64,000 nucleotides of DNA, from NCBI GenBank assembly GCA_963712115.1, contig CAVQGX010000022.1, forward strand, positions 32,001 through 96,000, given 5' to 3'. Position 1 is the stretch's first letter. Each line of letters starts with the position of its first letter. Both the position numbers and the translations under genes were made by a program. The DNA comes from an uncultured delta proteobacterium. Its GTDB lineage: Bacteria; Desulfobacterota; Syntrophobacteria; BM002. The notes below the pieces were generated by a model. The model searched no databases and was not told the DNA's origin. It saw nothing but the letters and a program-made list of their open reading frames with translations. Below, one piece after another: positions 11,943 through 29,185 of this stretch.

Positions 11943-12032
11943 AAAACATTCCAAAAAGTATGCGGAATAGTTTGTGGCGCTGAATATAATTGGCCACCCT
12001 TGCTTACAGTACTTTTTCGGGAGGTTAAAAGA

Positions 12033-13790: not shown

Positions 13791-13949
13791 CCCAGAAATT
13801 CATGGAATATCTGGTCTAGTGATGTTTGGTATGTCCAAAAGAAAAAAATCTTTTGGTTTAAGTTGTTTGAATTTCATTCCCTCCGTTGTTCTACCCTATT
13901 TGAGACTGTTCAATAATTCAATCTTTGAACGGCTTAAGACTGTGACGTG

Positions 13950-14022
13950 CCTGGATCCCCGCCTACGCGGGGATGACCGGCGATCTCGTATTGTCGTCAT
14001 TCCCGCGAAAGCGGGAATCTAG
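13950..14022. repeat. ATTCCC-N8-GGGAAT (dRS3-like) palindrome pair
   Basis: CTGGATCCCCGCCTACGCGGGGATGAC and GTCATTCCCGCGAAAGCGGGAATCTAG in inverted orientation. Confidence 0.78.
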
Positions 14023-14123
14023 GGTACTAGGAGCCTTTTACTGAGAGTTTCTTGGGGATAAATATCCGTAGCATGATGTCGTAACTAATTGATTTATCTC
14101 GTTAAAAAAATATTAAACAGTCT

Positions 14124-14546
14124 CTATTTTTCTTTAGCGGAGTCACTGTTACATAGTATGGAAAAAGGCTTGATAAGGACATCATAGTCGGGCCCGTACA
14201 CATCCGTGATCCGAATCTTTGCCTCGGAGGTGGGTGTGCAGGGCACTTCCCAATCATAGGATGCGAATGGTTCATCCATCTTCATGCTCTTGACAATTTC
14301 TATCCAGTTCTTGCCATTATCTATCGAGTATTCGATTTTCACATATCGTATGGATCTGGAGATTTGCCATGATATTTTTTGCTTGCTCCCGGCGAGAAAC
14401 TTCTCTCCTCCCAATGGATTAACAATAGTTATCTTTCTGAAATCTCTGTCCTCACCGCGAGAACCAAAACTGTCACTCTCAGGGGCAAAACCCAGCGCCG
14501 TTACAGCGATGATAATCATAATGAGCACATAGAGGTGGTTTTTCAT
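14124..14546 (-). CDS. Exported hypothetical protein with Ig-like beta-sandwich
   Basis: Signal peptide; ITIVNPLGGE...ISW...VKIEYSIDNGKNW...YDWEVP...KIRITD pattern. Confidence 0.75.
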   Translation of the reverse strand: MKNHLYVLIMIIIAVTALGFAPESDSFGSRGEDRDFRKITIVNPLGGEKFLAGSKQKISWQISRSIRYVKIEYSIDNGKNWIEIVKSMKMDEPFASYDWEVPCTPTSEAKIRITDVYGPDYDVLIKPFSILCNSDSAKEK

Positions 14547-14730
14547 CTTCTTCGTTCCTTTCTAAAACAGGCTTTTTAGTTCTTAAACACAAAACTTTAT
14601 CGATAAAAATAATCATTGGCTTGGAAAAATAAAGACAAACGGATGGACTGATCCCTCGTATTTTAGCTATCCTGGTGTACTTTAGCAGCTGAAACCTGAG
14701 GTGTTTGGTCCGAAGGCGAGGGAGAGTGCG

Positions 14731-15286
14731 ATGGTTGAATGCCGAATGAGACAGTTTGTCATTCTGGCTGCAACAATAATTTTCACTGCGGCGATGACTC
14801 TCGGTTGCACTGCAAATAAGTCTGCGACTCCCAGTGAAGTGGATGAGGTGGAGATCAAAATCATCGATCCTCTCAAAGCTTTTGAAGAGGAATACAAGGC
14901 TATAGGCGAGAAGGTGGAGGAAGGTTCCCTTCAGCGCCGAGGTCATGAGCAGCGCAAGTGAAATCCGCATGGGGCTGCAGAAGTACTTAATAAAGACAGA
15001 GGCGCAACTGGAGATTCTCAGACTGGATGTTCTGCACGGTGCCGAGGCCCAGCGGCAAAGGGCGCTGAACCAAATAGTTGAACTGGTTGCGGAGCGAGAG
15101 CAAACCAAGATATCTTACTTGCAACAGTTGCAAGCTCTAAAAACCGGCGGCAAGACATCTGAAGACAAGACAGGTATAAAAGGGACGGCCAAGGATCTGG
15201 ATATTAAAATTAAAATAGCACCAGAGGATATTGGCGATGGTGAAACGGCCTTGACTGTTGCGTCGCTAACCGAAAAATCCCCCTAA
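14731..15286 (+). CDS. Putative lipoprotein, frameshifted near 14930
   Basis: Lipobox MTLG-C in ORF 14701..14961, continuing into helical ORF 14945..15286. Confidence 0.55.
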
Positions 15287-15352
15287 ATCCCCCTTTACAA
15301 AAGGGGGACTTTTATGATCCAGTTCCCTGTAACCCCTCTTTGATAAAGGGGC
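15276..15352. repeat. REP-like palindromes, same family as 3241-3347
   Basis: AATCCCCCTAAATCCCCCTTTACAAAAGGGGGACTTT and CCCCTCTTTGATAAAGGGG. Confidence 0.78.
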
Positions 15353-15362
15353 AAATTCCCCC

Positions 15363-15946
15363 TCACTCCTTCAATTTCTTCAGCAACCATGCCATGTTGA
15401 TACTCCAAGATCGCTCATGGTCTTTATTCCCTCCTCGTCCTTTTCAACCTCACCTGGATCCAAGCCGTAGCCTAAATTCCAATATGTTGAGCCTGGAACT
15501 ATCATCTGGCCGATGAGGAAAAAATAGTTCACCGCTGAAAATGCGGAAACAGCCCCTGCCCTGCGGGCGGCTATAACTGCTGCCCCCACCTTGCGCTTGA
15601 AAAGATCTCCATTCATCCTCGCCACCAAACCGGCGCGGTCGATGAGGGCCTTCGCTTCCGTGGAAATGTTGCTGAAATAGGTGGGTGAGCCAATAATGAT
15701 CCCGTCCGCCTCGATCATTTTCTCGAGACAATCATTGAGAATGTCACCTTCTTTGCCGGCGTGGCACCTGGAGTCCTTTTTCTCCCCGCATTTGTAACAG
15801 GCAATGCATCCCCTGATCTTTTTCTTGCCCACCTGGACCAACTCAGTTGAAATTCCGTCCTTTTCCAGTTCCTCAAGCACTACATTGATCATTCTAGAAG
15901 TATTACCATTCTTTCTGGGACTACAGTTGAAAGCCACAATTCGCAT
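15363..15946 (-). CDS. Iron-sulfur flavoprotein / flavodoxin family (FMN_red)
   Basis: SPRKNGNT, CIACYKC..C, GSPTYF, RRAG motifs; the C-terminus appears frameshifted near 15400 (alternative frame gives NMAWLLKKLKE*). Confidence 0.9.
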
Positions 15947-16019
15947 TCTTCTACCTCCTTCGGATAGGTCCAATAAATTTCCCCCAGCGAACGGTTAAGG
16001 TGGGGGTGAAAATCCGCAT

Positions 16020-16290
16020 GGCGCAGAGGGTTAAAGGCCCAGGGCGCAAGGCTCAAGGCCCAAGGCAAGAATTTAGTAGTCAGTAGCCAGGTAATCAGAA
16101 TCCAGTAGGAAATCTGTAAATTCGCAATCCCAAATCAGCAATCCCAAATTATCAGAGTGCCTAGTGCTTAGTGCCTAGTAAACCTCTGTCCTCCGTCCTC
16201 TTTTCTCTGCTTTGATCGCCGCGTCGCCGTCTCTCCCCTTCACCGCGTCGTCCTCCTGCCTGCTGCATGCTGAGGAATAGCGCTCTGCGA
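16020..16290. repeat. Heptamer-rich intergenic repeat tract
   Basis: Runs such as GCTCAAG/GCCCAAG, TGCCTAG/TGCTTAG and CAATCCCAAAT. Confidence 0.6.
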
Positions 16291-18222
16291 TTAACTTCCC
16301 ATTATTCTCTTCACCGAGGGATAAAGGTCCATGTCGGTGTGGGGTAGGAAAAGGGCCGCTACGAACTCATCGTAAAACTTGGGGTCAACTGAGAGTTCGA
16401 AATAGGTCATCTGCCGTGCCAGGGTGTTGGCTCGCGCCAGAGCATGTCTGGAAAGCAATGCCATTCGAGCCCCGGTGAGGGAGCTGTTGCCGATAAATTT
16501 AATTTTCTCAGGGGGAAGATCGGGGAGGAGGCCGATAAAGATAGCTTTTTCTATATCCAGATAGTTGCCGAAGCCTCCTGCCACCAAGATCCTATCCAAG
16601 TCTTCAAATGACATGCCAACACTGTTCAGTAGTAGCCGCATGGCTGCAAGAATGGCGCCCTTGGATTTAATAAGATTGCTTATATCGCTCTCAGTGATTA
16701 CCACGCTCTTTCCTGTTTCTGTCTCATCTCCATGGGCCAGCACAAATTCCATGTCGCCTTCATTTTGTTGCACTCTGGGATTAGCAGAGTCTCTGGGAAA
16801 TTTGCCACTGGGATCGATGATCCGGTTGCGGAAGAGTTCGGCAATGGCGTCAATCAAGCCGGAGCCGCAGATTCCTCTGGCTTTGGCCCCACCTATGGTG
16901 TCATAATGAATTTTGTCCCCTTCTATCTGCACCTTCTGAATGGCGCCTTTTGTAGCCCGCATGCCGCATTTGGTGCCACTTCCTTCGAAGGCCGGCCCAG
17001 CGGAAGCAGAACAGCAGACCAGCCATTCATTGTTGCCAATGACGATTTCGCCATTGGTGCCAATGTCTATTAAGGCCGAAATCTGCGCACTATTACTTAT
17101 ACCAGAAGCCAAAACTCCGGCAGTGATATCTCCACCCACATAAGAGCTTACCCCTGGCATGCAGGTCACCCTGGCGTTGGGGTGTAAATGGAGATTTAGT
17201 TCGGCAGCGGATGCTGAAGGTAGAAAGTTGGCAGTGGGGATATAAGGTTCCAAGCGAATGGTGCAAGGCTCTAGACCCATGAAAAGATGAGTCATAGTGG
17301 TGTTACCTGCGGCGGTAAAAGCGGTAACGTTGCTGGACTCCACCCCATGTTTTTCCACCAGAGTATCTATGAGAGTATTTACCGGCTCAATGACAGCTGC
17401 ATGGATAGGTGACAAGCCACCACGGCTGCAGGCATAGATCATCCTTGAGATTACATCTTCGCCGTACCTGGCCTGCTGGTTGTGGCTAGCCTCAACTCCC
17501 AAAATGGCGCCACTGCGAAGATCCACCAACTGAGCGACAATGGTAGTGGTGCCGATATCGCAGGCAATGCCGTAATTCTCTGCGCAGGTGTTGCCCGGCT
17601 CAAGGGAGAGAATTTCTATACAGTGCTCATCAAGAGGGTAAATGGTTGCGGTGACCTGCCATTCATTTTCACGAAGCATGCTAGCCATACTTCGGAGTGC
17701 AGGTAGAGAAATCTCAAGAGTAGGCGCCTGGATCTTCTTGCGTATTTCCCTATACACCCGATCAAGATCCGCCAGGTTATCGGTAAGGGAGGGCTTGGGA
17801 AGAGACAGGTAGATTTTCTGAGTCACAGGCATGTATAGAAGTGAAGGGATATCCAGAGTATCCTTTACTTCAAGGTCCTGGGGCGCTTGGTAGCAGACCA
17901 TAGATTCGGTAGTGAGAATCTGCTCCTCTTCCAGACGCGCCTCGGGAGGCACCCAGACTTCTAAATCTTCTCTGACCTCAGTCTGGCAGGCGAGAACAAA
18001 GGCTGCATTGATCTCCTCCCGGCTCAGGAATCTGATGCTCTGACTGGTGGGTTTTGCCTCACCACGGGTAATTTGCACCTTGCATTTTCCGCAGACGCCC
18101 TCGCCACCGCAGAGGCTGTTAATATAAATGCCAGCTTCGGCGGCCGCCTCGAGGATGTTAGATTCTCCCTCCACCTCTATCTTGGCGCCCACCGGTTGAA
18201 AGACCACCTTGTGTTTGGCCAT
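16291..18222 (-). CDS. ASKHA-domain ATPase with N-terminal 2Fe-2S ferredoxin (RACo/DUF4445, corrinoid reductive activator family)
   Basis: CGGEGVCGKC...LACQ; DIGTTT; YGEDVISR; DIGTNGE; SAGPAFEG; GICGSG; AGGFG. Confidence 0.92.
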   Translation of the reverse strand: MAKHKVVFQPVGAKIEVEGESNILEAAAEAGIYINSLCGGEGVCGKCKVQITRGEAKPTSQSIRFLSREEINAAFVLACQTEVREDLEVWVPPEARLEEEQILTTESMVCYQAPQDLEVKDTLDIPSLLYMPVTQKIYLSLPKPSLTDNLADLDRVYREIRKKIQAPTLEISLPALRSMASMLRENEWQVTATIYPLDEHCIEILSLEPGNTCAENYGIACDIGTTTIVAQLVDLRSGAILGVEASHNQQARYGEDVISRMIYACSRGGLSPIHAAVIEPVNTLIDTLVEKHGVESSNVTAFTAAGNTTMTHLFMGLEPCTIRLEPYIPTANFLPSASAAELNLHLHPNARVTCMPGVSSYVGGDITAGVLASGISNSAQISALIDIGTNGEIVIGNNEWLVCCSASAGPAFEGSGTKCGMRATKGAIQKVQIEGDKIHYDTIGGAKARGICGSGLIDAIAELFRNRIIDPSGKFPRDSANPRVQQNEGDMEFVLAHGDETETGKSVVITESDISNLIKSKGAILAAMRLLLNSVGMSFEDLDRILVAGGFGNYLDIEKAIFIGLLPDLPPEKIKFIGNSSLTGARMALLSRHALARANTLARQMTYFELSVDPKFYDEFVAALFLPHTDMDLYPSVKRIMGS

Positions 18223-18224
18223 TC

Positions 18225-19610
18225 TTAACCCCTAACTTTCCTATCGACTTGGATATCAAAAGCCTTGAGTCGCTTCCACAGGGTCACCCTGCTGATGCCG
18301 AGGATTTCGGCCGCCTTCGATTGGTTTCCACCGGTGGTGTCCAAGGCCTCCAGAATCCTCTTTCTCTTCTCCTCATCGCTTTGCCTTTTCGCCGCCCGGA
18401 GCTTTGAGGTCACCCTGGGCTGTTTTCCTGTGACTCGGGCGGGGAGATGGCTTGGCATGATCTCGCCTTCGTGGCAGAGAACAAAGGAGTATTCGATGAC
18501 ATTTATCAATTCACGGACATTACCGGGCCAGTCATAGTGGAAAAGCAGGTCCAAAGCCTCCTTACTCATTCCACTGATGGGTTTGTCAGTCTTGAGGCGG
18601 ATCCTGTTGATGAAGGTTTCTAACAGCAAGGGAATATCTTCCCGCCGCTCCCGCATGGGCGGAAGATAGATTGGAATCACTCCTATACGGTAATAGAGGT
18701 CCTCACGAAAACGGTCCTCTTCCATGAGTCTATTCAGATCTTTGTTGGTAGCGGCTACAATGCGGACATCTATTTTAATGGGGCGGTGGTCCCCAACCTT
18801 TTCGATCTCCTTTTCCTGGAGAACTCTCAAAAGCTTGACCTGGGTGGAGAGGGGAAGGTCGCCAATTTCATCTAAGAAGATGTCGCCGCCGTTGGCTGCC
18901 TCAAATCGCCCCACCCGGGTCCGCTCCGCGCCGGTAAAAGCTCCTTTTACATGACCGAAAAGTTCGCTTTCAAGAAGAGACTCGCTTCAGGCTGCGCAGT
19001 TTACCTTAATATAAGGACCATTTCGCCGAACCCCCAGTTTATGAATTGCCTCAGCCACCAGTTCCTTCCCGGTACCGCTGTCTCCATAAATAATAACTGG
19101 AGCCTCAGATTGGGCCGCACTAGAGATTAAATCAAAAACCTGGCGCATGGCCGGAGATTTTCCAAGGATTCCTTGGAAGCCGTCCTTGCTGCTCAATTCT
19201 CGACGAAGGCGGGTGATGACCCTATCTTTTGATACCACCTCGCTGAGGTCGGTAAGGGTCTCCACACCCCCAATCACCCGGCCATCGACATCTTTCAAAA
19301 CTGCTGCATTCTTGTGTACATAGAGAGGTTCTCCGTCCTTTTTCCGCAGCATGCACTTACGGCGCGTTACCTGGCCCTCCTTGAACAGGGCGCAGTACTT
19401 GTCATGCCCCTCAGCCCTGGTTCCAAAGCAGGTGTCACAATCCAGTATTGCACAAGACTGCCCAACAAGCTCATCCCTGTTGTAGCCGGTAATAGTCTCC
19501 ATGGCCTTGTTGATTGAGATAATCACCCCTTCCAGATCCACCACCATCAGCCCATCGGCCATGGTATCAACGATGGTCTTCCAGTACTGGCTGAACTCCT
19601 CCTGAAACAT
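18225..19610 (-). CDS. PAS-domain sigma-54-dependent activator (Fis HTH), interrupted by an in-frame TGA at 18987-18989
   Basis: ORFs 18987..19643 and 18225..18914 are in one frame: GDSGTGKE...[25 protein letters not shown]...FLDEIGD...WPGNVREL...HTH. Confidence 0.88.
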
Positions 19611-19817
19611 AATCAACCTGACTCCGGGATTTTGTTTTCTCAATCACCTTGAAATAAAGAAGCAGAAGTTCCTAGCAAACAAGTGTTAATTTCAGTCAAA
19701 AGATAAACAGATGTTAAGTGTAAACCATTGACAGTTAACAATCAATAGGCGGACCCAAAAAATATTTTTTTATAAGCAAAACAGCTATATATAGAATAGA
19801 TTGTAGCCAGACCCTAT

Positions 19818-19832
19818 TGGCATGCATATTGC
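19818..19832 (+). promoter_or_regulatory. Sigma-54 promoter of the tusA-hdr-dsrE operon
   Basis: TGGCATGCATATTGC (GG-N10-GC), divergent from the activator gene; TGTAAACCATTGACA-type palindromes near 19684-19740 are candidate enhancers. Confidence 0.85.
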
Positions 19833-19915
19833 CGAAAAAGGATTCGAGCCTGCCTGACAACCCCTTTTTCACCTCCCCTGGCGGGAGGGGAAAAGGGGAG
19901 GGGGGGAAAGGGATT

Positions 19916-20170
19916 GTGGAAAAAAAAGGTGAAGCAAACAAGGTCATCGATCTTCGCGGAATGAGCTGTCCCTGGTCCATTCTCAAAGCCAAAAGCCAAC
20001 TGATCACCATGGAGCCGGGAGAAGTCTTAGAGGTGCTCTCTGGCGATCCCATGTTGATCAAAGATTTCCCCAAAGTGCTGGGCAATAGAGGCCACCAACT
20101 CATTCAGATCAAAGATAAACAAGAGTTTTCGACGGCTTTATGTGCGCAGGGGAAAGAGCGAACAGGGTAA
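19916..20170 (+). CDS. tusA: TusA family sulfurtransferase (copy 1)
   Basis: IDLRGMSCPW...GEVLEVLSGDP; GTG start downstream of the promoter; possible indel near the 3' end. Confidence 0.8.
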   Translation: MEKKGEANKVIDLRGMSCPWSILKAKSQLITMEPGEVLEVLSGDPMLIKDFPKVLGNRGHQLIQIKDKQEFSTALCAQGKERTG

Positions 20171-20234
20171 ATAAAATAATTCTCCGGTTTTCAAACCGGA
20201 TATTGTTCTTAACCGTAACCGACAGGAGGAAGCA

Positions 20235-20489
20235 ATGACAAGCACGGATCTAAACAGTATTGAGGCTGCAAGTGTAGTGGATGCCCGTGGCAGCGCCTGC
20301 CCCGGTCCTTTGCTGGAGGCTAAGAAGGGCATAGGAAAGGTCAAGGTGGGAGAGGTCCTGGAAATACTTTCCAACGATAGCGCCACCAAGAATGACATTC
20401 CGGTGTGGGCCAATAAGGTAGGACACGAGTCTCTTGGCTATCTGCAAGCAGATGGCTACGACCGCATCTTCGTCAGACGGAAAAAATAA
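20235..20489 (+). CDS. tusA: TusA family sulfurtransferase (copy 2)
   Basis: VDARGSACPGPLL...GEVLEILSND..DIPVW; AGGAGG RBS. Confidence 0.92.
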   Translation: MTSTDLNSIEAASVVDARGSACPGPLLEAKKGIGKVKVGEVLEILSNDSATKNDIPVWANKVGHESLGYLQADGYDRIFVRRKK

Positions 20490-20975
20490 ATGGATAGGAC
20501 TATGGCAGCACAGGGTAATCAGCAAAAAATACTGATCCTGGCCACAGAAACCTGTGCCTATCCGGGTGCAAACGCGGTGGGGCAGGCTCACATGACCTAC
20601 CCCAGCAATACTTACATTCTCAGGGTACGCTCACCAGTGCTCTTTCCCGAGAAGTTTTACCTCGACTGTTTCGCTAAAGGTATAGGCGGCATCATCATCA
20701 TGTCCTGCGGAGAGGAGTGCCCATACGAAGGCGCTTATCACGCCTTAGCGGCGAGGATAGACAGGGTCTACAAGATGATGAAAGAGAAAGGGTTCGATAT
20801 AAGGAGGCTTCGCCTCACCGCCATCTGCACCGTGTGCACCCGAGCCTTCATAAATGAAGTTAAGATGATGAACGAAATTGTATCCGAATTGGGACCACCG
20901 GGTCCGCACGACGACTCGGAGACGCGGAGAATCGGGGAATCGGCGAGAAATGCAGCAATTGACGAGGGAGTATAG
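20490..20975 (+). CDS. mvhD: MvhD/FlpD-type 2Fe-2S subunit
   Basis: KILILATETCAYPGANAVG, YPSNTYILRV, MSCGEECPY, ICTVC. Confidence 0.85.
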   Translation: MDRTMAAQGNQQKILILATETCAYPGANAVGQAHMTYPSNTYILRVRSPVLFPEKFYLDCFAKGIGGIIIMSCGEECPYEGAYHALAARIDRVYKMMKEKGFDIRRLRLTAICTVCTRAFINEVKMMNEIVSELGPPGPHDDSETRRIGESARNAAIDEGV

Positions 20976-21002
20976 GTGCAGTTGGTGAATGAGGAAGTGA
21001 AA

Positions 21003-22307
21003 ATGTCGAAAATATTAAAATTCGATGCTTTGGTTGTTGGCGGAGGTATAGCCGGGCTGCAGGCTGCCTTGGACCTGGCTGATCAGGACTTCAAAGTGGC
21101 CATAGTGGAAAAGGATGCTTCCATTGGTGGTAAAATGATCCGACTCTCCAAAGTATTTCCTACCCTCGATTGCTCAAGCTGCATTACCACACCCAAGATG
21201 GCCGCTGCCGCTCACCATGAAAACATCACCATCTTCACCTACTGCGATCTACAATCTCTCCAGAGAAATGGGGATGGCATGGCCGCAAGGGTGAGGCAGA
21301 AACCCCGGTTTGTGGATGAGGCAAAATGCATAGGTTGCAGACAGTGTGAATATGACTGCCCTATCTACGTGCCCGATGCGGACCAGGGAGGGTTCTCTGC
21401 CCGCAAAGCCATCTATATCCCCTTTTCCAATGCCATTCCACAGATTGCCTTACTGGATGTGGAAAACTGCACCCTCTGTGGCAAATGTGAAAAGGTGTGC
21501 CCCACAAAAGCGGTGGATTATTTTCAGGGACCAAAGGAGTTCAGCATCGAGGCTAAGACCGCTATCCTGGCCACAGGTTTCGAGATAACTCCAGCTGAGA
21601 ACAAGCACCAGTATGGTGAGGGTAAGATCCCCAACGTGATAACCGCCCTGCAGATGGAAAGGCTGTTAGCACCACATGGCCCATACAACCGGGTTCTCAG
21701 GCCTTCCGACGGCATGGAACCGGACTCTATTGCCTATATTCAGTGTGCCGGATCACGGGACAAGAGCATGGGAATTCCTTATTGTTCGCGGGTCTGTTGC
21801 ATGTACGCTATCAAACAGGCCATGCTCCTATCAGGTGCCCTGCCGGTGGCAGACATAACCATTTATTACATGGACATACGCGCCTTCGGCAAAGGCTATG
21901 AGGAATTTTTTCAAAACGCTGTGGCAATGGGAATAGAGTTCGTTAAGGGGAAGGTGGCCACCATAAGCGGAGGGGACAATGGGGGAGTGAAAGTCCACTA
22001 CGAGTCCCAAGGAAAGGGGACCGGTGTTACTCGAGCAGAGCATGACCTGGTGGTATTGTCGTTGGGTATGGTTGCCGGCTGGAACCCCGAGGGTTTATGT
22101 GCTGTATCTACTGCAGGCGATGGTTTCATCAAAACAATCAAGCCAAAATCTTCCCCTAGCAAGACCGACATGGAAGGAGTCTTTGTGGCTGGAGCTGCAG
22201 CTGGTCCTAAAGACATTGTGGATACCATCGCAGAGGCTGGGGCCGCGGCCATGGAGGCTGCCAAGTACCTGACGGCTATGAACTCTTCACCAAAGGCAGT
22301 GGCGTGA
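21003..22307 (+). CDS. hdrA: HdrA family flavoprotein, short form with inserted ferredoxin
   Basis: GGGIAG, KVFPTLDCSSC, CIGCRQCEYDCP and CTLCGKCEKVCP, QCAGSRD..YCSRVCC, GPKDI. Confidence 0.92.
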   Translation: MSKILKFDALVVGGGIAGLQAALDLADQDFKVAIVEKDASIGGKMIRLSKVFPTLDCSSCITTPKMAAAAHHENITIFTYCDLQSLQRNGDGMAARVRQKPRFVDEAKCIGCRQCEYDCPIYVPDADQGGFSARKAIYIPFSNAIPQIALLDVENCTLCGKCEKVCPTKAVDYFQGPKEFSIEAKTAILATGFEITPAENKHQYGEGKIPNVITALQMERLLAPHGPYNRVLRPSDGMEPDSIAYIQCAGSRDKSMGIPYCSRVCCMYAIKQAMLLSGALPVADITIYYMDIRAFGKGYEEFFQNAVAMGIEFVKGKVATISGGDNGGVKVHYESQGKGTGVTRAEHDLVVLSLGMVAGWNPEGLCAVSTAGDGFIKTIKPKSSPSKTDMEGVFVAGAAAGPKDIVDTIAEAGAAAMEAAKYLTAMNSSPKAVA

Positions 22308-22350
22308 GGTTTAGTTGATTGGCCTGGATTCTTTACTGGGAAATGCACAG

Positions 22351-24279
22351 ATGGCAAAGAGAACAAAAGAGAGAGAGATGGAAGCGGAACCTAAAATAGG
22401 GGTTTACGTTTGCCAATGCGGGGGCAACATCTCAGACCATGTTAATGTAGAAAAAGTATGCGAGGGAGCGAGCAAGATCCCTGGAGTCGTGGTGGCTCGG
22501 GAGAACATGTTCATGTGCTCCGACCCAGGCCAAGATCTCATAATCGAAGATCTCAAAAGCGGGGCTGTTGACCGGGTGGTAGTGGCATCTTGTGCACCAG
22601 ACCTACACGAGCTGACCTTTCGCAAAGCCGTTTCGCGGGCGGGCAAAAATCCCTATATATACGAACATGCCAATATTCGCGAACAGGTGAGCTGGGTACA
22701 TCATGGCGATGCAGCAACTGAGAAGGCAACCCGGCTGGTGGCGGCAGCCACTGCCAAGGCTAAGCAGCTCCAGCCCCTTGAACCAATTCGGGTAGAGGCC
22801 AAACAACATGCAGTGGTTATTGGGGGTGGCATAGCAGGTATGAAGGGTGCTACGGATCTGGCGGGGCGAGGTATTGCAGTAACATTGCTGGAGAAATCGC
22901 CGTTTCTCGGGGGAAGGGCGGCTCAGCTGGATGGTTTAGCTCCAACCGGGGAAAAAGCCTCTGATCTCATTTCGGAGCTTACCGGCGAGGTTTTGAATGA
23001 TCCGGCGATTGCGGTTTACACCAATGCGGAATTGACGAATTCTGAAGGTTACGTGGGCAAGTTCAAGCTAAGGTTCCAAAGGCGGCCTCCAAATTCACAA
23101 GAAGATCTCGACAAAATTAAGGAAATGGTTGAATCCGGTAAAGAATTTGGAGAGTTCATTCCGCTCGTGGGAATCTGCCCGGAAAAGATAGCAGAAAAGA
23201 GTGAAGAATATACCGTCGAAGCCGGTGTAATTTTACTGGCAACGGGTTTCAGGCCTTATAGTCCCCGTAAAGGTGAATACGGTTTCGGGGAATTTGAGGA
23301 GGTGGTAACACTCCCAGAATTTATAAAACTCATGGCGAAAAACCGGAGAAACGGCGACTTGCTAGAGATCAAGGGCAAGAAAATCAAGAGTGTTGCCATT
23401 ATTCATTGTGTTGGCAGTAGGCAGATTCCAGGCATTCATGAGGAGGATGACACAGGCTACCTTAACGAATACTGTTCTCGGACCTGCTGTACAGCCACAC
23501 TCCATGCTGCCAACACTGTCCGCGAAAATTATCCGGAAACAAGAGTTTTTGACTTTTACCGCGACATAAGGACTTATGGCCGAGGACAAGAGGAGTTGTA
23601 CGAGCGGGCTTCTAAGAACAGAATTCTATTCCTCCGTTATGAACCGGCAGAAGCTCCAATTGTGGAGAGAAACAATGGATCCAATGGTTATCCCCTCTCG
23701 GTCAAAGTAAATGACACCCTGACCTTTGGCGAGGAAGTGGAGGTACCTGTTGATCTGGTGGTTCTAGCTGTGGGCATGGAACCGAACAATGTTTCTAATC
23801 TGGTGGAAATGATGAAGCTTCCAGTGGGAGCCGATCGCTTTCTCCAGGAAGTCCACCCGAAACTACGACCGGTTGAATTGTCAGTGGCGGGCATTTTACT
23901 GGCAGGGACATGCCAATCACCTATGGATACAGGCGAAGCTTGCAATGGTGCTTCTAGCGCGGCAGTTAAGGCTTCGTCCCTGCTAAGCCGCGGCTATGTG
24001 GAACTGGATCCCTTTGTGGCCGAGGTGGATGTGGAAAAGTGCACGGGCACCGGAGCCTGTGTGAAGGCATGTTTGAGAGAAGAGGCCCTTAGTCTGGTGG
24101 AGATGGAGGTCGAGGGCAAAAAAGTCCGACGGGCAGAGGTAAATCCAGCTCGGTGCAATGGCTGTGGCGCCTGCGTGGCAGTGTGCCCTGAAAACGCCAT
24201 CAATGTCAAAGGGTGGACGCTCAAGCAGTATGAGGCCATGGTGGATATGATCGTTACAGATGACATCTCAGCTGGATAA
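22351..24279 (+). CDS. hdrA: HdrA family flavoprotein with N-terminal domain and C-terminal ferredoxin
   Basis: KIGVYVCQCGGNI, FMCSDPGQ, ASCAP, ANIREQ, GGGIAG, HCVGSR..YCSRTCC, EVHPKLRPV, CTGTGACVKAC and CNGCGACVAVCP. Confidence 0.93.
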   Translation: MAKRTKEREMEAEPKIGVYVCQCGGNISDHVNVEKVCEGASKIPGVVVARENMFMCSDPGQDLIIEDLKSGAVDRVVVASCAPDLHELTFRKAVSRAGKNPYIYEHANIREQVSWVHHGDAATEKATRLVAAATAKAKQLQPLEPIRVEAKQHAVVIGGGIAGMKGATDLAGRGIAVTLLEKSPFLGGRAAQLDGLAPTGEKASDLISELTGEVLNDPAIAVYTNAELTNSEGYVGKFKLRFQRRPPNSQEDLDKIKEMVESGKEFGEFIPLVGICPEKIAEKSEEYTVEAGVILLATGFRPYSPRKGEYGFGEFEEVVTLPEFIKLMAKNRRNGDLLEIKGKKIKSVAIIHCVGSRQIPGIHEEDDTGYLNEYCSRTCCTATLHAANTVRENYPETRVFDFYRDIRTYGRGQEELYERASKNRILFLRYEPAEAPIVERNNGSNGYPLSVKVNDTLTFGEEVEVPVDLVVLAVGMEPNNVSNLVEMMKLPVGADRFLQEVHPKLRPVELSVAGILLAGTCQSPMDTGEACNGASSAAVKASSLLSRGYVELDPFVAEVDVEKCTGTGACVKACLREEALSLVEMEVEGKKVRRAEVNPARCNGCGACVAVCPENAINVKGWTLKQYEAMVDMIVTDDISAG

Positions 24280-24414
24280 TGTTTTGGGCAGTATCTCTAC
24301 AGCAGGCCCAAATCCACCGTCTAATTTAGTTATCAGTATTGAAATCAGCTGCTTATGCAGTATTCCTGATCACCATCAAGGCAGGGTGTAGCGGATGCCA
24401 TATGAGGACAAAAA

Positions 24415-24732
24415 ATGACTGAAGCAAGAGAAGAGAATAGAGTCCAGAAAGAGGCAATGAAAAAGCTGCGCCAGGGCAGAAAAGTAAAGATCAAGACGGC
24501 CAAGGCTAGAATGAAGGAGCAGCGGAAAACAATCAAGGCCATCAAAGAGCAGCTCAAGGATAGCCCTCAGACGGTGCCGGAGATTGCCGCGGCCACAGGA
24601 TTTGAACCTTCCCATGTCCTTTGGTTCCTTGCAGCCCTGAAGAAATACGGCCAGATCGTTGAAGGTGAAAAGGACGGTAGCTACTTTAAATTTAGCTTAG
24701 CGAAAAAAACTTCAGATGAGGAGCCACGCTAG
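24415..24732 (+). CDS. Small basic winged-helix protein
   Basis: PQTVPEIAAATG...VLWFLAALKKYGQIVEG..Y pattern. Confidence 0.78.
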   Translation: MTEAREENRVQKEAMKKLRQGRKVKIKTAKARMKEQRKTIKAIKEQLKDSPQTVPEIAAATGFEPSHVLWFLAALKKYGQIVEGEKDGSYFKFSLAKKTSDEEPR

Positions 24733-24775
24733 AGTAATAGGTAGTTAGATTCATTACTCTAAAGGAGAATCGATA

Positions 24776-25087
24776 ATGGCAACGGTGGATCTGGAATTTG
24801 CCGAGCAGTTGGAGCGCTTTGGAGTGGACAACGCCTTAGAATGCTTTAATTGTGGAACCTGTGCGGCGATCTGTCCTCTCATATATGAACACTTCCCGAG
24901 AAAAATCATCCGATACGTTCAGTTGGGTGCCAAGGATGTGATACTCCGAGACGCAGATGAGCTGTGGCGCTGCCTCCACTGTGGGCTTTGCACCTATACC
25001 TGTCCGAGAGAAGCTAATCCCGGTGAACTTATTCTGGGATTAAGGCGATATGTTATCGCCACCTGGAGGGGGACTGCTCATGTATAA
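24776..25087 (+). CDS. HdrC-like 2x[4Fe-4S] protein
   Basis: CFNCGTCAAICP, PRKIIRYVQLG, LWRCLHCGLCTYTCP. Confidence 0.9.
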   Translation: MATVDLEFAEQLERFGVDNALECFNCGTCAAICPLIYEHFPRKIIRYVQLGAKDVILRDADELWRCLHCGLCTYTCPREANPGELILGLRRYVIATWRGTAHV

Positions 25088-26006
25088 ACCTAGGGATATT
25101 ATCGAACTCATCGCTGACAACGTCAAGAAAACGGGAAATCCCTTTGGCGCTTCTAGCAAGGTGATCAACGGATGGTGGAAAAACGTCCCCCTGCCCCGGG
25201 AAGGTGATAGGCTGCTCTTTACAGGTCTAATGTATCAATCCGTACCTTTTATAGAAAAGACAACCACTTACCTTGAGAGCTACGAAGATACAGCTCTTGG
25301 GAAATATGTGAAGTACGGTAGGTTCGTGCCTAAACTTCTGGTGGGATGGGGATTTACCTTGCTCGCTTCCAAGGAAGAGAAAAGGAAGTTCAATGGTATG
25401 CTGCGCAGCATCGTCGAGGTTCTCAAGAAATCGAAGGTCAATTTCTACTACAGACCCGAACTGGACCACTACAGCGGTATCTTACTCTACGACCTGGGAG
25501 ATCTCGATGGGTTCATAAACCACGCTAGGTCTGTGGTAAGTAAGCTCAAAGAAAAGGGGGTCAAAAAGCTCATAACAGTCGACCCCCACACAACATATGC
25601 TTTGAAAATTCTCTACCCAAAATACACGGGTGAAACGTTCGAAGTAAAGACCTACTTCGAGTTAGTCAATTTGACCGGCAACAACGGCAACAGGCAGGTT
25701 ACCCTTCACGATCCATGCATGTACGGAAGATACCTAGAGATGTCGGATGTTCCGAAGAAGGTCTTGGAAAATCTGGGCATCGAATGCTTGGCAGTTCGGA
25801 ACTCCGGCCCCTTCACCATTTGCTGCGGCGGTCCGGCCGAGTCCGTGTCTCCCAAGCTTTCTAGAGAACTGGTTGACAGAAGGATCGAAGAACTGCAGTC
25901 AACCGGTGCTCCCGTGGTGGCAATGTGCCCAATATGCATGGCAAATCTTACAAAGGGCGGTGTGGAGGTGGAGGATCTTTCCACCTTGATTAACCGCTGC
26001 GCCTAA
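25080..26006 (+). CDS. CCG-domain (HdrB/HdrD-like) Fe-S protein
   Basis: KTGNPFG, HDPCMYGR, CCGG, MCPIC; the first CCG half is degenerate. Confidence 0.87.
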   Translation: MYKPRDIIELIADNVKKTGNPFGASSKVINGWWKNVPLPREGDRLLFTGLMYQSVPFIEKTTTYLESYEDTALGKYVKYGRFVPKLLVGWGFTLLASKEEKRKFNGMLRSIVEVLKKSKVNFYYRPELDHYSGILLYDLGDLDGFINHARSVVSKLKEKGVKKLITVDPHTTYALKILYPKYTGETFEVKTYFELVNLTGNNGNRQVTLHDPCMYGRYLEMSDVPKKVLENLGIECLAVRNSGPFTICCGGPAESVSPKLSRELVDRRIEELQSTGAPVVAMCPICMANLTKGGVEVEDLSTLINRCA

Positions 26007-26068
26007 ATGAACCATTAAGAGGCGTCAATGTTAATTCTGTAAAAAACTAAACAACCAAAGAAAGGAGA

Positions 26069-26443
26069 ATGAAGATGGCGGAAGCTGAAAAGATGGTCTA
26101 CATCGTGACCCACGCGGGAGAGGATCCGGAGAGAGCAACCTTTCCATTCATGCTGGCAACTGCGGCCCAGGCCATGGAAGTCGAGGCAGTGGTAGCTTTG
26201 CAGGGAGTATCAGTGTTTCTAGCCAAAAAAGGCTACCTGGATCACGTCGCAGCGGCTGGTTTACCCCCACTCAAGGACTTGGTAGCCAGATTTTTCGAGG
26301 CCGGCGGCAAGCTGCTCATCTGCACACCTTGCATCAGAGAGAGAAACATTGAAGAATCTGACTTGATAGAAGGTGCGGAGTTGATTGCTGCAGCGAGGCT
26401 CAACCAAGAGATTCTCAGTGCAAACGCAACATTAGTTTACTAA
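26069..26443 (+). CDS. DsrE family protein
   Basis: THAGEDPERATFPF...QGVSV...GGKLLICTPCIRER. Confidence 0.88.
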   Translation: MKMAEAEKMVYIVTHAGEDPERATFPFMLATAAQAMEVEAVVALQGVSVFLAKKGYLDHVAAAGLPPLKDLVARFFEAGGKLLICTPCIRERNIEESDLIEGAELIAAARLNQEILSANATLVY

Positions 26444-26479
26444 AAAAGACCAGGAAGAATCCCACCTCTCAATCTACAT

Positions 26480-26523
26480 TTCCCCCTCCCCTCTAATCCT
26501 CAAACGAGGGGCGGGGGATTTTC
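26480..26523 (+). terminator. Possible terminator after dsrE
   Basis: TCCCCCTCCCCTC...GAGGGGCGGGGGA stem followed by TTTT. Confidence 0.5.
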
Positions 26524-26635
26524 ATTATTACAGGGCTTTAGGTGTCAGGTTTCAGGTGTCAGGAAGGAAAGACCAGCTCTGGGGGCATCTCAAAGCCGGG
26601 TCCTCCCGCCGGGCCGTAGGCAGGGCCCGGATTCT

Positions 26636-27253
26636 TTATTGGCCTCTACCAGGTGGAGGCAACGTTTGAAAAAAAGGATCTCCCTGTTGACCGGGAAGGC
26701 TTAGAGTCTCGAGCAGGGGCAAGAGACCGCCACTTTCTGTGAAACTGAGGTAATTGCGATAATGGTGGCCACCAGCCAGCCGTTCTATGAATCGGCAAAT
26801 AGTAGAAACAAAGTTCACTGGTGGAGGTACTCGGTAGTCTACCAAGATGAGGGTCCGCGCCAGCCGCTGCATCTCCCTCAGTACTGGCAGACGTTGCTTT
26901 GACTCCATCTCATGCAGAACCATGCAGGCAGTGGCGTAGTCAAAGTAACCACTGGGGAAAGCAGCCAATTTTTCCCCAGAGGCAAAGATGAACTGGACGT
27001 TCGTAAGCCCCAAGTCTCGAAGTCGCTGATGGGCGTATGCCCACATGCGATGGGAAGCTTCGACTCCCACCAATTCCGTACACGAATCGGTAAGGAAAAA
27101 AACAAGCTCACCGGTGCCGCAACCGATATCAATGAGGGAACTTCCCGGCTTTATTTGTCGGCGCACCAGCTTTCGCGCCTTGCGCAGAGCTGGATCCACA
27201 AATAAATGATAGAGCCAACCGTCGTAGAAGTTCTCTTGGCGTTTTTGAGACAT
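26636..27253 (-). CDS. Class I SAM-dependent methyltransferase
   Basis: LIDIGCGTG, FDYA..MVLHE, LILVDY; the 3' end may be frameshifted. Confidence 0.88.
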   Translation of the reverse strand: MSQKRQENFYDGWLYHLFVDPALRKARKLVRRQIKPGSSLIDIGCGTGELVFFLTDSCTELVGVEASHRMWAYAHQRLRDLGLTNVQFIFASGEKLAAFPSGYFDYATACMVLHEMESKQRLPVLREMQRLARTLILVDYRVPPPVNFVSTICRFIERLAGGHHYRNYLSFTESGGLLPLLETLSLPGQQGDPFFQTLPPPGRGQ

Positions 27254-27404
27254 ATAGGTGTCTTAAGTCGCATAGCGGTTAGCGTTAAAGGCTCAGGGCG
27301 CAAAGCTACCTGGGTCATTAGGCTTCGCCGTCATTAGGTCATTACGCTACGCTGTCATTTATTGTAAGAGGTAGAGGACCAGAAAATTGCGAAATTCGAA
27401 ATTA

Positions 27405-27484
27405 AGAATCCGCAATGCGAAACCGGAAACCCACCCGAAGGGTGGGAGTCCGAAAAACAAATTCCCAAAGTGCCTAGTGCCTAG
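27405..27484 (+). repeat. About 80-bp dispersed repeat within a heptamer tract (copy 1)
   Basis: AATCCGCAATGCGAAACCGGAAACCCACCCGAAGGGTGGGAGTCCGAA...AAAGTGCCTAGTGCCTAG; near-identical to 62480-62557. Confidence 0.8.
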
Positions 27485-27772
27485 TTGGTTTCCCCATGCT
27501 CCATGCTCTATGCCTGTTTCAAATCCGCAATCCGAAATCCCAAATTGCTCCATGCTCTATGCCCGCTGGATTCTGACTCCTGGCTACTGGATTCTTAAGA
27601 TGATAAAGTCATCAGCCTGTGACCCATAAGGCTAGTACCATAAATAAATTTTAGAAGAAAGCAATCGGTTTTTTGTTCTATTTTAAGCTTGATGGTCTTA
27701 CCAGCGGTATGATAGGGAAACGTTGATAATGACCATTTCGTCAAAGTTGATCTGATTCTCACACCTGAAGAG

Positions 27773-29185
27773 TTGAGCGTGCCGGTTTTCGACAAAAAAG
27801 ACTTTGCTAAAATTCTTGAGCAAATAGAGCAGGGGAGTATTGCCCCCATCTATCTCCTCCACGGAGAGGATTACCTGGTGAAATCAGCCCTTGAAGAGCT
27901 CACAGAGCTGCTTGTTCCGGAATCACAGCGAAGCACAAATCTCCAGGTGGTTGACGGGGGGGAAGCTGACTTTCGACAAATCTTGGACAGCGTCAACACT
28001 TTCGCCCTCTTTGGGGGGCGCAAGGTGATTGTGGTGCGCAATAGCCGCATTTTTTACTCCCGCGCCAACCTCCCTGCTCTTGTTGCCAAGAGCAAAGAGG
28101 GTTATGAAGCTGGAGATCTGAAAACTGCAGCTCGTCTTCTGCTCGAGGTGCTAGGGCACGCTGAATGGTCCCTTGCCGATGTGGCCGCAGGAGCCTGGCG
28201 AGAAATACCTGCCGATCTATGGAAACAAACCATGGGGGTGGAGCAGGGACAGTCTGAGTTGGGGTGGCTGGAGCAAGTTGTAGAGTACGCCAGCAGCGCG
28301 GAAATGGAGATACCGGTCAAGACCGATGAGGGTTCTTTACTGGAAGAGGCTCTTCAGCAGGGGTTTCCTTCGGAGCAATGTTTACTCATTACCACTGACA
28401 CCATAGACCGACGGAGAAGCCTTTACCGGCTCATGGAAGAAAAGGGGATTGTAGCCGATTTCAGTGTGACTTCAGGTACGGGCCGAAAAGCTCGCTCCCA
28501 GCAAGAGGCAGTCTTGCGAAGCTTGGCTGAGGAAATTTTGTCTGCAGCTGGCAAGAAAATTGAGCCTGAGGCGCTATCCCTGCTCCTGGAGAGAACCGGA
28601 TTTAATCTCTGGGCCCTCAAGACTCAGCTGGAGAAGATTATTTCTTTTGTGGGAGAAGAGTCCTTGGTCACCCTAGAGCAAGCAGAAAGTATGAGCGACC
28701 AGTTTCGGGAGGAAGCCCTGTATGAGTTAAACAACGCAGTGACTGAGAGAAACTGTGAAGCTGCTTTGCAGGTTTTGAACCGCCTTTTGGATCAGAACTA
28801 CCACCCGCTCCAGGTTCTCGCCTCTCTGGCCACGGAGGTGCGGCGATTGCTTTTAGCGCGAGAATTTATCGAAGAGCATCTGGCAGGAAGTCTGGACCCA
28901 AGCATCTCCTACGGCAGTTTCCAAAAGACCGTGCTGCCCATTGTAAAAGAGAAGACCGAGAAAGGATCCCCCCTGGGCAGTATGCATCCCTTTGCTTTGC
29001 ATAAGACCCTGGTCCGCTCCCGTGCTTATCAGACCGCGGACCTGATCAATGCTCTGCAGCATCTTTTTCAAACCGATCTCACCCTAAAGAGCAGTGGCAT
29101 TACTGGGCGCGCTGTTATGGAGAGTCTGATTATGAGGCTCTGCCGATTGACTCCGCGCCCCATGCCCCAGTCTTCACGACAGTGA
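27773..29185 (+). CDS. holA: DNA polymerase III delta subunit
   Basis: PIYLLHGEDYL, FALFGGRKVIVVR, LKTQLEKI, HPLQVL, DLTLKSS; carries an internal insertion. Confidence 0.88.
   Translation: MSVPVFDKKDFAKILEQIEQGSIAPIYLLHGEDYLVKSALEELTELLVPESQRSTNLQVVDGGEADFRQILDSVNTFALFGGRKVIVVRNSRIFYSRANLPALVAKSKEGYEAGDLKTAARLLLEVLGHAEWSLADVAAGAWREIPADLWKQTMGVEQGQSELGWLEQVVEYASSAEMEIPVKTDEGSLLEEALQQGFPSEQCLLITTDTIDRRRSLYRLMEEKGIVADFSVTSGTGRKARSQQEAVLRSLAEEILSAAGKKIEPEALSLLLERTGFNLWALKTQLEKIISFVGEESLVTLEQAESMSDQFREEALYELNNAVTERNCEAALQVLNRLLDQNYHPLQVLASLATEVRRLLLAREFIEEHLAGSLDPSISYGSFQKTVLPIVKEKTEKGSPLGSMHPFALHKTLVRSRAYQTADLINALQHLFQTDLTLKSSGITGRAVMESLIMRLCRLTPRPMPQSSRQ

Follow-up and report, generated by a model that had tools for sequence, protein, structure and literature searches.

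Genes and promoter of the cluster

We analyzed a 64,000-nucleotide stretch of DNA (the window) from an uncultured delta proteobacterium of the Desulfobacterota (positions 32,001 to 96,000 of contig CAVQGX010000022.1). The window contains a series of nine genes, from a tusA-like gene to dsrE, that encode relatives of the subunits of heterodisulfide reductase (Hdr) together with candidate carriers of sulfane sulfur. A full-text literature search, with supplements outside its reach, found no description of this cluster, and the operon is apparently unstudied so far.

All nine genes lie on the forward strand. The first is a tusA-like paralog (TusA1; 19916-20170; 59.6 bits to Pfam TusA), which has a GTG start within an open reading frame (ORF) that is open from 19817. 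It is followed by tusA (TusA2; 20235-20489; 71 bits to the same model), which encodes the motif D-A-R-G-x-x-C-P-G-P, and by a gene for an MvhD-like [2Fe-2S] electron-transfer subunit (MvhD/FlpD; 20490-20975; Pfam FlpD), which ends with a TAG stop. Then come two hdrA genes. The short one (21003-22307; Pfam and NCBIfam) likely starts with the ATG at 21003, and its ORF reaches back to a GTG at 20976 (443 amino acids); the long one (22315-24279; 654 amino acids; Pfam and PDB entry 5odc_A) has an uncertain exact start. A small basic protein with a winged helix-turn-helix (wHTH) fold is encoded at 24415-24732 (105 amino acids) and was recognized from its AlphaFold2 (AF2) model and with Foldseek. The last three genes encode an HdrC-like subunit with a ferredoxin domain for two [4Fe-4S] clusters (24776-25087; 103 amino acids; Pfam Fer4_8; 8 cysteines), a CCG protein that resembles HdrB and EtfD and has a single cluster site (25080-26006; 308 amino acids; Pfam CCG), and a DsrE3-like sulfur carrier (dsrE; 26069-26443; 54.2 bits to Pfam DsrE). 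The hdrC-like and CCG genes overlap by 8 nucleotides.

An earlier note on this DNA had listed these genes, and the ORF list, Pfam, and NCBIfam place all of them where the note did. It had also put a single sigma-54 promoter ahead of the series, and the sequence at 19818-19833 on the forward strand (TGGCATgcataTTGC / TGGCATgcataTTGCC) agrees with a -24/-12 promoter of the strict pattern TGGCAY-N5-TTGC[A/T/C]. Of 28 related loci, 19 have this strict pattern between the activator gene and tusA: it is present in 19/22 of the loci without an HdrL-type short HdrA and in 0/6 of the HdrL-type loci, which are mostly from Chloroflexota. The 1.26 Mb of locus sequence contains 37 matches in total on both strands. 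Similarly, a domain scan of ORFs from 12000 to 30442 turned up nothing for a hydrogenase, formate dehydrogenase (Fdh), Flx, Apr, or a lipoate carrier, which bears out the note's claim that the cluster lacks such genes.

The host genome (4.9 Mb in 70 contigs; 94.4% complete) belongs to a sulfate reducer. It carries dsrA above the cut-off and, on a different contig (C31), aprA with adjoining qmoABC. Its DsrK is encoded away from the operon (C1:14608-16035; 724 bits to NF045796). The genome also encodes many large HdrA fusions.

Sulfur carriers and their linkage to the hdr genes

In a pattern scan, the CCG protein hit 49 loci, and an alignment-based scan of species-representative genomes found at least 583 relatives among 598 candidate stretches, which may include paralogs. 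Our synteny counts are for the best 80 of these (at least 583) relatives, and the denominators are the loci with enough flanking sequence. Among these loci, tusA is present in 52/54, mvhD in 52/55, short hdrA in 55/57, long hdrA in 63/64, the wHTH gene in 73/73, and hdrC in 76/76. dsrE lies downstream of the CCG gene in 66/70 loci; in a few, it is upstream of tusA instead. A divergent activator gene is present in 42/51. The earlier note had named a lack of conservation of tusA and dsrE beside these hdr genes as one ground for giving up its proposal. Since the linkage is widely kept, that ground is absent.

The window's gene order is repeated in six HdrL-type loci, mostly from Chloroflexota. 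Locus L033 from Archaeoglobaceae has the redox genes in the same order, and we found no match to tusA or dsrE there. The loci that lack tusA are from two complete chromosomes of metagenome-assembled genomes, which retain just a 3' remnant of the cluster (L004/L059 and L006/L061; CCG 73-75% identical). The remnant comprises the wHTH, hdrC, CCG, and dsrE genes, along with the same convergent methyltransferase gene as in the window. Part of long hdrA is retained in L004/L059 only, and tusA, mvhD, and short hdrA are gone from both chromosomes. Because the 3' remnant alone remains, this suggests that the module has decayed in that lineage.

Named carriers of the cluster include Desulfosarcina variabilis Montpellier, Desulfococcaceae HSG8, and delta proteobacterium NaphS2. 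Because there are cultured carriers (D. variabilis Montpellier and strain NaphS2), the function of the operon is directly testable.

The cluster's CCG family and the window's own DNA are also found in environmental data. Among 1.84 billion representatives at 50% identity, 104 matched the CCG family with E-values up to 1e-30 and 457 with E-values up to 1e-10. All or part of the stretch is present in 20 sequencing runs, which come from 15 metagenome studies of estuaries, mangroves, and marine sediments, and the DNA in 14 runs is nearly identical (about half of the sampled words). In two metatranscriptome libraries, each from a different study, contigs cover 30 and 27 of the 30 bins at 90-99% likeness, and the pieces of 605-1266 nucleotides have about 2% differences; contigs from RNA libraries do not prove transcription.

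The two TusA proteins differ in how well their active sites are conserved. TusA1 was found by tblastn in 20/54 loci and its Cys18 is kept in just 7/19 sequences, so by sequence it is a degenerate paralog. TusA2 scores above the cut-off for the TusA family (PF01206) and has the conserved Cys-Pro site; its Cys22 is kept in 29/29 sequences, and 22 of its 84 alignment columns are invariant, including D16, R18, G19, C22, P23, G24, and P25. DsrE matches its Pfam family and has an invariant cysteine: Cys85 is kept in 40/40 aligned sequences and in 78/79 tblastn hits. Its likeness to DsrE3 comes from its best match in the PDB, which is 3mc3 (SSO1125 from Saccharolobus; E = 1.9e-8), a protein that the Dahl group treats as DsrE3A-type (PMC11094781). 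In the host genome, the operon's two genes are the sole matches to Pfam TusA, and the operon's dsrE is the sole DsrE match above the family cut-off.

Because of the gene linkage, sulfur bound to TusA and DsrE is the most likely substrate of the system, with the Hdr-type wire as its electron supply. Our preferred reading is tentative, and we consider it nearly as likely to be right as wrong: a soluble complex of split HdrA, MvhD, HdrC, and the CCG protein would reduce the sulfane sulfur that is carried on TusA and DsrE. The earlier note had proposed a persulfide reductase on similar grounds, and gene linkage still makes this the best inference. Respiration, disproportionation, and detoxification fit the data alike as its purpose. 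As discussed below, the proposal is weakened by a non-canonical CCG protein and by archaeal relatives that are found with GlcD-like oxidases.

From the gene content, conservation, cofactor motifs, and folds, we infer the subunit contacts, the substrate, the direction of electron flow, and the signal as follows. A single sigma-54-dependent operon, whose expression would depend on the divergent activator, would encode a soluble multi-subunit flavo-iron-sulfur complex that works with two cysteine-persulfide carriers. Short and long HdrA would form a lopsided heterodimer and jointly supply the domains of one methanogen-type HdrA, with MvhD as the adaptor at the side where electrons enter. Electrons would pass from the C-terminal ferredoxin domain of long HdrA to the two [4Fe-4S] clusters of the HdrC-like subunit and then to the single noncubane [4Fe-4S] cluster of the CCG protein. 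Sulfane sulfur would be taken up by DsrE and handed to TusA, as DsrE3-type proteins from sulfur oxidizers do in vitro (PMC11094781). The persulfide, polysulfide, or thiosulfonate on the carrier would then have its S-S bond cut reductively at or near the CCG cluster, yielding H2S and the carrier's thiol. The electron source could be reduced ferredoxin and/or a partner bound to MvhD; in the Chloroflexota version, it could be NAD(P)H, via a GltD/NfnB-like module that is inserted in short HdrA. The flavin might also bifurcate or confurcate electrons. A more specific idea seems unlikely to us: the complex would work in the cytoplasm as an electron-bifurcating or confurcating reductase, with a persulfide or trisulfide bound to TusA or DsrE as its "heterodisulfide."

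Little is understood of how anaerobes deal with zero-valent and protein-bound sulfur in the cell. The known cytoplasmic routes are DsrC/DsrK, the NAD(P)H persulfide reductases, and sHdr, which is oxidative, and the operon is a candidate for a fourth, widespread route. If the complex is indeed a bifurcating or confurcating reductase of this kind, intracellular zero-valent sulfur could be a source of conserved energy for sulfate reducers, Dehalococcoidia, and some Archaeoglobi. In that case, S-S chemistry that is absent from the solved Hdr and EtfD structures would fall to a lopsided HdrA heterodimer with one His-ligated noncubane cluster. The operon could also reveal how a heterodimeric, domain-complementary HdrA works and if catalysis is possible at a His-ligated noncubane cluster of the EtfD type.

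Another explanation starts from the type of DsrE. The carriers might bind a thiosulfonate group (-S-SO3) from thiosulfate or tetrathionate, and the complex would cut it to sulfite and the carrier's thiol or persulfide. This would be a cytoplasmic system for the reduction of thiosulfate or tetrathionate that feeds DsrAB. The match to the DsrE3A-type protein 3mc3 fits this idea, as DsrE3A delivers thiosulfonate to TusA in Metallosphaera cuprina (PMC4175335, PMC11094781). A single cluster might also be enough for the reaction if just one product is a thiolate. On the other hand, the placement of our protein in the DsrE3-type subgroup is not from a phylogeny, the cluster has no gene for handling sulfite, and three genomes that carry the cluster have no match to dsrA, so sulfite would have no obvious sink in them. 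Overall, we consider cleavage of a thiosulfonate to be quite improbable.

Electron-transfer subunits and the proposed reaction

The HdrA pair divides the domains of HdrA between two proteins. Short HdrA has a thioredoxin-reductase-like core that binds flavin adenine dinucleotide (FAD) and an inserted ferredoxin domain for two [4Fe-4S] clusters, and it lacks the N- and C-terminal domains of HdrA; it covers positions 138-561 of the HdrA2 profile (465 bits; cut-off 1100). Long HdrA has the N-terminal domain, the FAD core, and a C-terminal ferredoxin domain for two [4Fe-4S] clusters; in the region of the insert (residues ~240-310), neither Pfam nor the translation shows an Fe-S domain match or a cysteine motif. 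The two proteins are therefore domain-complementary. Single-protein paralogs in which a short-type half is followed by a long-type half are found both in the host (C26:3087-6116; 1009 amino acids) and in L002 (998 amino acids), and these Rosetta-stone fusions support the proposed heterodimer. Other HdrA fusions in the host genome are at C25:13679-16480, C20:40837-45294, C11:3894-8072, and C24:3348-6794; some of the host's fusions have an inserted NAD(P)H module, and two show in-frame TGA codons in a six-frame search. In Chloroflexota, short HdrA has ~908 amino acids and carries Fer4_20 and Pyr_redox_2, which together correspond to the GltD/NfnB-like NAD(P)H module. Among the other electron-transfer subunits, MvhD has C77, C113, and C116 invariant in 29/29 sequences, and the 8 cysteines of the HdrC-like subunit are invariant in 45/45.

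The earlier note had considered that the HdrA proteins might fall within a characterized Hdr or Qmo clade. We used IQ-TREE to build a tree from 44 C-terminal FAD-core segments (195 columns). The long-HdrA orthologs of three phyla form one clade (11 rows; support 100/97), and the short-HdrA orthologs group together as well (13 rows; support 91/99). Both clades are apart from the host's QmoA, from the halves of the fused paralogs, and from a second, Qmo-like cluster of some loci, in a tree that lacks methanogen HdrA, sHdrA, and type II Qmo sequences, as well as the host's own QmoB, so the note's expectation of distinctness stands for the relatives that were included. None of the curated equivalog cut-offs in NCBIfam for HdrA, HdrA2, HdrC, QmoC, and GlcF is passed by the cluster: the scores are 512.7 bits for HdrA2 (cut-off 1100), 375.6 for HdrA (cut-off 1400), and 51.9 for HdrC (cut-off 160). 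The HdrC-like subunit also spans positions 2-94 only of the 360 in the QmoC profile (82 bits; cut-off 300).

The note's statement that the gene order is unlike that of HdrABC-Mvh, QmoABC, or sHdr is correct, as the cluster lacks the diagnostic features of each. It shares with the methanogen HdrABC-MvhAGD complex (5ODC) an FAD-containing HdrA with N- and C-terminal Fe-S domains (long HdrA), MvhD, an HdrC with two [4Fe-4S] clusters, and a two-domain fold like that of HdrB. In methanogens, however, HdrA is a single polypeptide instead of being split over proteins of 443 and 654 amino acids, and HdrB has two complete CCG motifs and two noncubane clusters, whereas the CCG protein has one cluster site and a His ligand. 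There are also no genes for the MvhAG hydrogenase or Fdh here, and TusA and DsrE are present in place of CoM-S-S-CoB metabolism.

QmoABC and QmoAB-HdrCB resemble our cluster in having a tandem of two different HdrA-derived flavoproteins and an HdrC-type ferredoxin. Unlike QmoABC, the cluster has no membrane-bound haem b domain of QmoC and is not beside aprAB. Neukirchen et al. (2023) describe type II qmoAB as closer to hdrA, as found both in the presence and in the absence of Dsr and Apr, and as having an unclear function that needs experiments (PMC10504309). By its description, locus VIII of Desulfobacterium autotrophicum HRM2, which has tandem hdrL and hdrA4 along with hdrC and hdrB, is similar to the Chloroflexota form of the cluster (PMC2702500); that source does not mention tusA or dsrE and gives no specific function. 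These two descriptions come nearest to our cluster among the published statements found.

Might the complex work in the oxidative direction, with carrier-bound sulfane sulfur being oxidized to sulfite? The sHdr-LbpA systems of Hyphomicrobium, Aquifex, and Sulfolobales combine an Hdr-type Fe-S flavoprotein with TusA and a DsrE3-type carrier as the accessory set (PMC11094781), and the operon likewise encodes TusA and a DsrE3-like carrier beside its Hdr-type proteins. However, neither the window nor the recurrent neighbors in related loci include a gene for the lipoate-binding protein LbpA, duplicated hdrB and hdrC genes, or the order hdrC1B1AHC2B2. The cluster has MvhD and a large bifurcating-type HdrA instead of the small sHdrA: long HdrA scores 410 bits (E = 1.3e-121) against the bifurcating HdrA of methanogens (5odc_A) and 107 bits against sHdrA (6tjr). 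Furthermore, with its dsrA and aprA, the host is a sulfate reducer. We think that an oxidative role is very unlikely.

Evidence against persulfide reduction comes from the CCG protein, which would hold the catalytic site. Its Pfam CCG match is at residues 217-300 of a 318-residue ORF, and its only invariant cysteines are C213, C248, C249, C283, and C286. Cysteines are missing from the N-terminal CCG half in all 45 sequences. Thus, by its sequence, the protein is not a canonical HdrB, as it has one cluster site only. Its AF2 model (pLDDT 88.3; pTM 0.89) is most similar to the CCG region of EtfD from Mycobacterium smegmatis, both by Foldseek (E = 3.8e-10; TM 0.68) and by VIA (Z 25.9; root-mean-square deviation (rmsd) 2.2 Å over 255 residues; 23% identity). 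The next matches by VIA are HdrB (8rvu_B; Z 19.3) and a Helicobacter protein without a known function (3kwl; Z 14.6), and the third rank by Foldseek is a LutA-LutB model. In NCBIfam, the best partial hits are to LdhH, TfrB, and GlcF.

EtfD has a linear [3Fe-4S] cluster, D1, with ligands Cys503, Cys538, Cys581, and Cys584, and a noncubane [4Fe-4S] cluster, D2, with ligands Cys637, Cys672, Cys673, Cys709, Cys712, and His583 (PMC13083937). HMMER maps C213 of the CCG protein to Cys637, C248 and C249 to Cys672 and Cys673, and C283 and C286 to Cys709 and Cys712. In a profile alignment, the invariant D168-P-H170-T171 is placed on C581-P-H583-C584. His170 is kept in 45/45 close sequences and, in the wider family, in 96 of 116 rows. 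Because these cysteines and the histidine align with the set of D2 ligands, the sequence indicates a D2-only protein with a His ligand and without the D1 ligands. The same source terms D2 non-catalytic, as the histidine fills its coordination, and states that FadF and DgcB, which lack the D1 cysteines, are electron acceptors from electron-transfer flavoprotein (ETF).

More distant relatives add to these doubts. In Geothermarchaeota and Nitrososphaeria, HdrC/CCG pairs that are 34-36% identical to ours adjoin a GlcD-like FAD oxidase, and we found no TusA or DsrE match at those loci with tblastn or blastp or in Pfam searches of the flanking ORFs. This context makes the ancestral role of the family look like electron transfer. 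Two of the archaeal loci, from Thermoproteota (L044:3934-6624 and L045:6235-8936), have the HdrC/CCG pair and the GlcD-like oxidase as a three-gene unit that is followed by a class-V aminotransferase gene. By eye, many representatives of the wider family with at least 380 amino acids fuse an N-terminal CxxCxxCxxxCP ferredoxin segment to the CCG part.

Together, the single His-ligated site and the archaeal contexts weaken the view that the CCG protein is a disulfide-cleaving HdrB, and the main rival explanation rests on them. It holds that the HdrC/CCG pair is a GlcF- or EtfD-type wire that leads from the HdrA pair to a flavoprotein or dehydrogenase that is encoded elsewhere, and that TusA and DsrE are redox partners, regulators, or sulfur donors for cluster assembly, rather than substrates at the CCG site. 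Besides EtfD being the closest solved fold, the cluster resembles mycobacterial EtfD, FadF, DgcB, and GlcF in its five Cys and one His ligands (D2) and in the pairing with a ferredoxin module for two [4Fe-4S] clusters. In contrast to those systems, the operon has no membrane or haem b domain and no ETF or GlcD gene, and its CCG protein is wired to HdrA and MvhD and is linked to sulfur carriers. The cluster also has no conserved gene for a partner dehydrogenase or ETF, and tusA and dsrE are the only non-redox genes that are kept with the cluster in the bacterial phyla that were sampled. The conservation of TusA2 also fits a specific protein interface. A complex prediction for the CCG protein, HdrC, and TusA2, with alignments and with TusA2 as the partner, scored 0.00 in both runs, which argues neither for nor against binding. 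We consider the electron-transfer role to be an unlikely alternative, though one to take seriously.

Single-cluster CCG proteins can be catalytic. DsrK from DsrMK(JOP) is HdrD-like and has a single CCG-type cluster that acts on a protein-bound trisulfide (of DsrC). The C-terminal CCG domain of DsrK aligns with our CCG protein at 93% hhalign probability, over residues 199-270 only. By eye, the host's DsrK has GECGHM upstream of its CCG domain, a possible counterpart of the His170 motif; the hmmsearch and hhalign alignments cover the C-terminal CCG domain alone. DsrK (NF045796) is absent from the NCBIfam hits of the CCG protein. Unlike DsrK, our cluster has no DsrM partner, and the host's real DsrK is elsewhere.

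The distribution of the cluster raises further doubts about persulfide reduction as its role. In an even sample of 400 other genomes from the phylum, just 21 contain an ortholog of the CCG protein, and the one other genome from the same genus (95% complete) has no match to the cluster; the module is therefore accessory and patchy. In this host, the operon may be silent because its activator is cut by a TGA codon (see below), unless the TGA is an assembly error. Finally, three of five cluster-carrying genomes outside the Desulfobacterota, whose completeness is not given, have no match to dsrA. Hence, the module is not tied to the Dsr pathway, and we count this against a tie to that pathway and not against the reduction of sulfane sulfur as such.

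Regulatory genes, neighbors, and minor features

The earlier note described a divergent activator gene and a gene of the ASKHA superfamily. Both genes are present, with two qualifications: the activator is split by a TGA, and the ASKHA gene shows no linkage to the cluster. The activator gene (18225-19643; reverse strand) encodes PAS, AAA+, and HTH_8 domains, with Pfam matches on both halves. All of the domains are present, in two frame segments rather than one reading frame, as an in-frame TGA at 18987-18989 splits the gene. This position is a leucine in 20/20 orthologs of the divergent activator, and the codon is CTA in the closest relative (L002). The orthologs are single ORFs of 455-494 amino acids. 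No listed contig piece from four runs bridges 18987. The TGA is either a nonsense mutation or an assembly error.

The PAS domain has five cysteines (C64-x4-C69-x2-C72-x11-C84-x12-C97) that are invariant in 21/21 sequences. In OrpR from Desulfovibrio vulgaris, which is also a sigma-54 activator, the PAS domain holds a redox-sensing [4Fe-4S] cluster via three cysteines (PMC8359166). With OrpR as a precedent, the PAS domain of our activator probably senses the redox state or sulfane sulfur.

The wHTH protein has a confident AF2 model (pLDDT 90.7), with a long helix at residues 2-47 and an ArsR/SmtB-like winged helix, and it contains no cysteines. Foldseek's best match is SmtB (E = 3e-3; rmsd 1.3 Å over 53 residues), with none at E-values up to 0.001. 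The other searches gave Pfam hits at E = 0.007-0.009 only and no NCBIfam match. Atlas clusters found for this protein were automatically named as ArsR family.

The ASKHA gene (16291-18222; reverse strand) encodes a 2Fe-2S/ASKHA protein of the RACo type. It is a full-length match to the NCBIfam model for AcsV/RACo, the corrinoid activase (680 bits; cut-off 800). A RACo gene accompanies the cluster in just 1 of 80 related loci, and the gene is a Wood-Ljungdahl accessory that lies outside the operon unit.

The remaining neighbors were counted over 61 related loci. A hydrogenase or Fdh is not recurrent among the neighbors in these loci. MetV (6/61) and MetF (8/61) are encoded 3' of the cluster, and these, together with the RACo/AcsV gene that adjoins the cluster in the window, raise the possibility that the cluster is a module of the Wood-Ljungdahl pathway. 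It would then be the Hdr for a MetFV-type methylenetetrahydrofolate reductase, and the sulfur carriers would be incidental. MetFV-HdrABC-MvhD has been described as a known complex from Moorella (PMC10553843). However, metF and metV are absent from the window and from most of the loci, RACo is almost never linked, and the linkage of tusA and dsrE is far tighter than that of metVF. It is thus hard to believe that the cluster primarily serves methylenetetrahydrofolate reduction.

Several other neighbors suggest a sulfur context for the cluster in its relatives, which favors the reduction of sulfane sulfur. These are DrsE_2 proteins (11/61), flavoproteins like CoA-disulfide reductase (6/61), and a split peroxiredoxin. 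The peroxiredoxin is part of a second cluster that is found in several loci and that encodes DrsE_2, DsrE, the peroxiredoxin, a QmoA-like protein, a QmoB-like protein fused to MvhD, HdrC, and HdrB. The AhpC/peroxiredoxin is in two ORFs with the break at its active-site motif (L016:11386-12108, and also in L018, L032, and L034), and the break is possibly a selenocysteine codon.

This split gene also hints at selenium trafficking, in which a selenopersulfide on the carriers would be reduced to selenide for SelD. Furthermore, both TusA copies match the YedF models, which are for selenium metabolism, about as well as they match TusA. These YedF scores are far below the cut-off (39 and 31.6 bits; cut-off 79), there is no selenocysteine at position 85 of DsrE in 79 hits, and neither selD nor yedE is conserved nearby. 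Of the explanations we weighed, selenium trafficking is the least probable.

A further neighbor, absent from the window, is a Cys/His-rich protein of 234 amino acids, without a Pfam family, which is encoded 3' of dsrE in 31/61 loci (for example, L062:8523-9227, L016:9633-10337, and L030:9427-10128). L002 and L003 have a second activator and a second tusA, followed in L002 by an ABC transporter, a fused HdrA-HdrA, and mvhD.

In the window, two hairpins on the forward strand came from a consensus scan. A small hairpin followed by a run of T lies between the two tusA genes (20183-20200) and might be an attenuator, and a GC-rich, terminator-like hairpin with 7 GC pairs and a T-rich tail lies 3' of dsrE (26609-26630). 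The leader between the promoter and the start of the tusA-like gene (19860-19915) is unusually purine-rich (GGGAGGGGAAAAGGGGAGGGGGGGAAAGGGA). Other matches to the strict sigma-54 pattern in the window are at 15235, 54370, and 57667 (- strand), three in all.

The spacer between long hdrA and the wHTH gene (24306-24414) varies between strains: contigs from three runs (two RNA libraries and one DNA library) have ~28 other letters instead of 107 nucleotides. Elsewhere in the window, a 1572-residue ORF (34358-39076; reverse strand) has no Pfam match at E-values up to 0.001. It adjoins a gene for a GAF/PAS hybrid histidine kinase of 936 amino acids (31305-34115).

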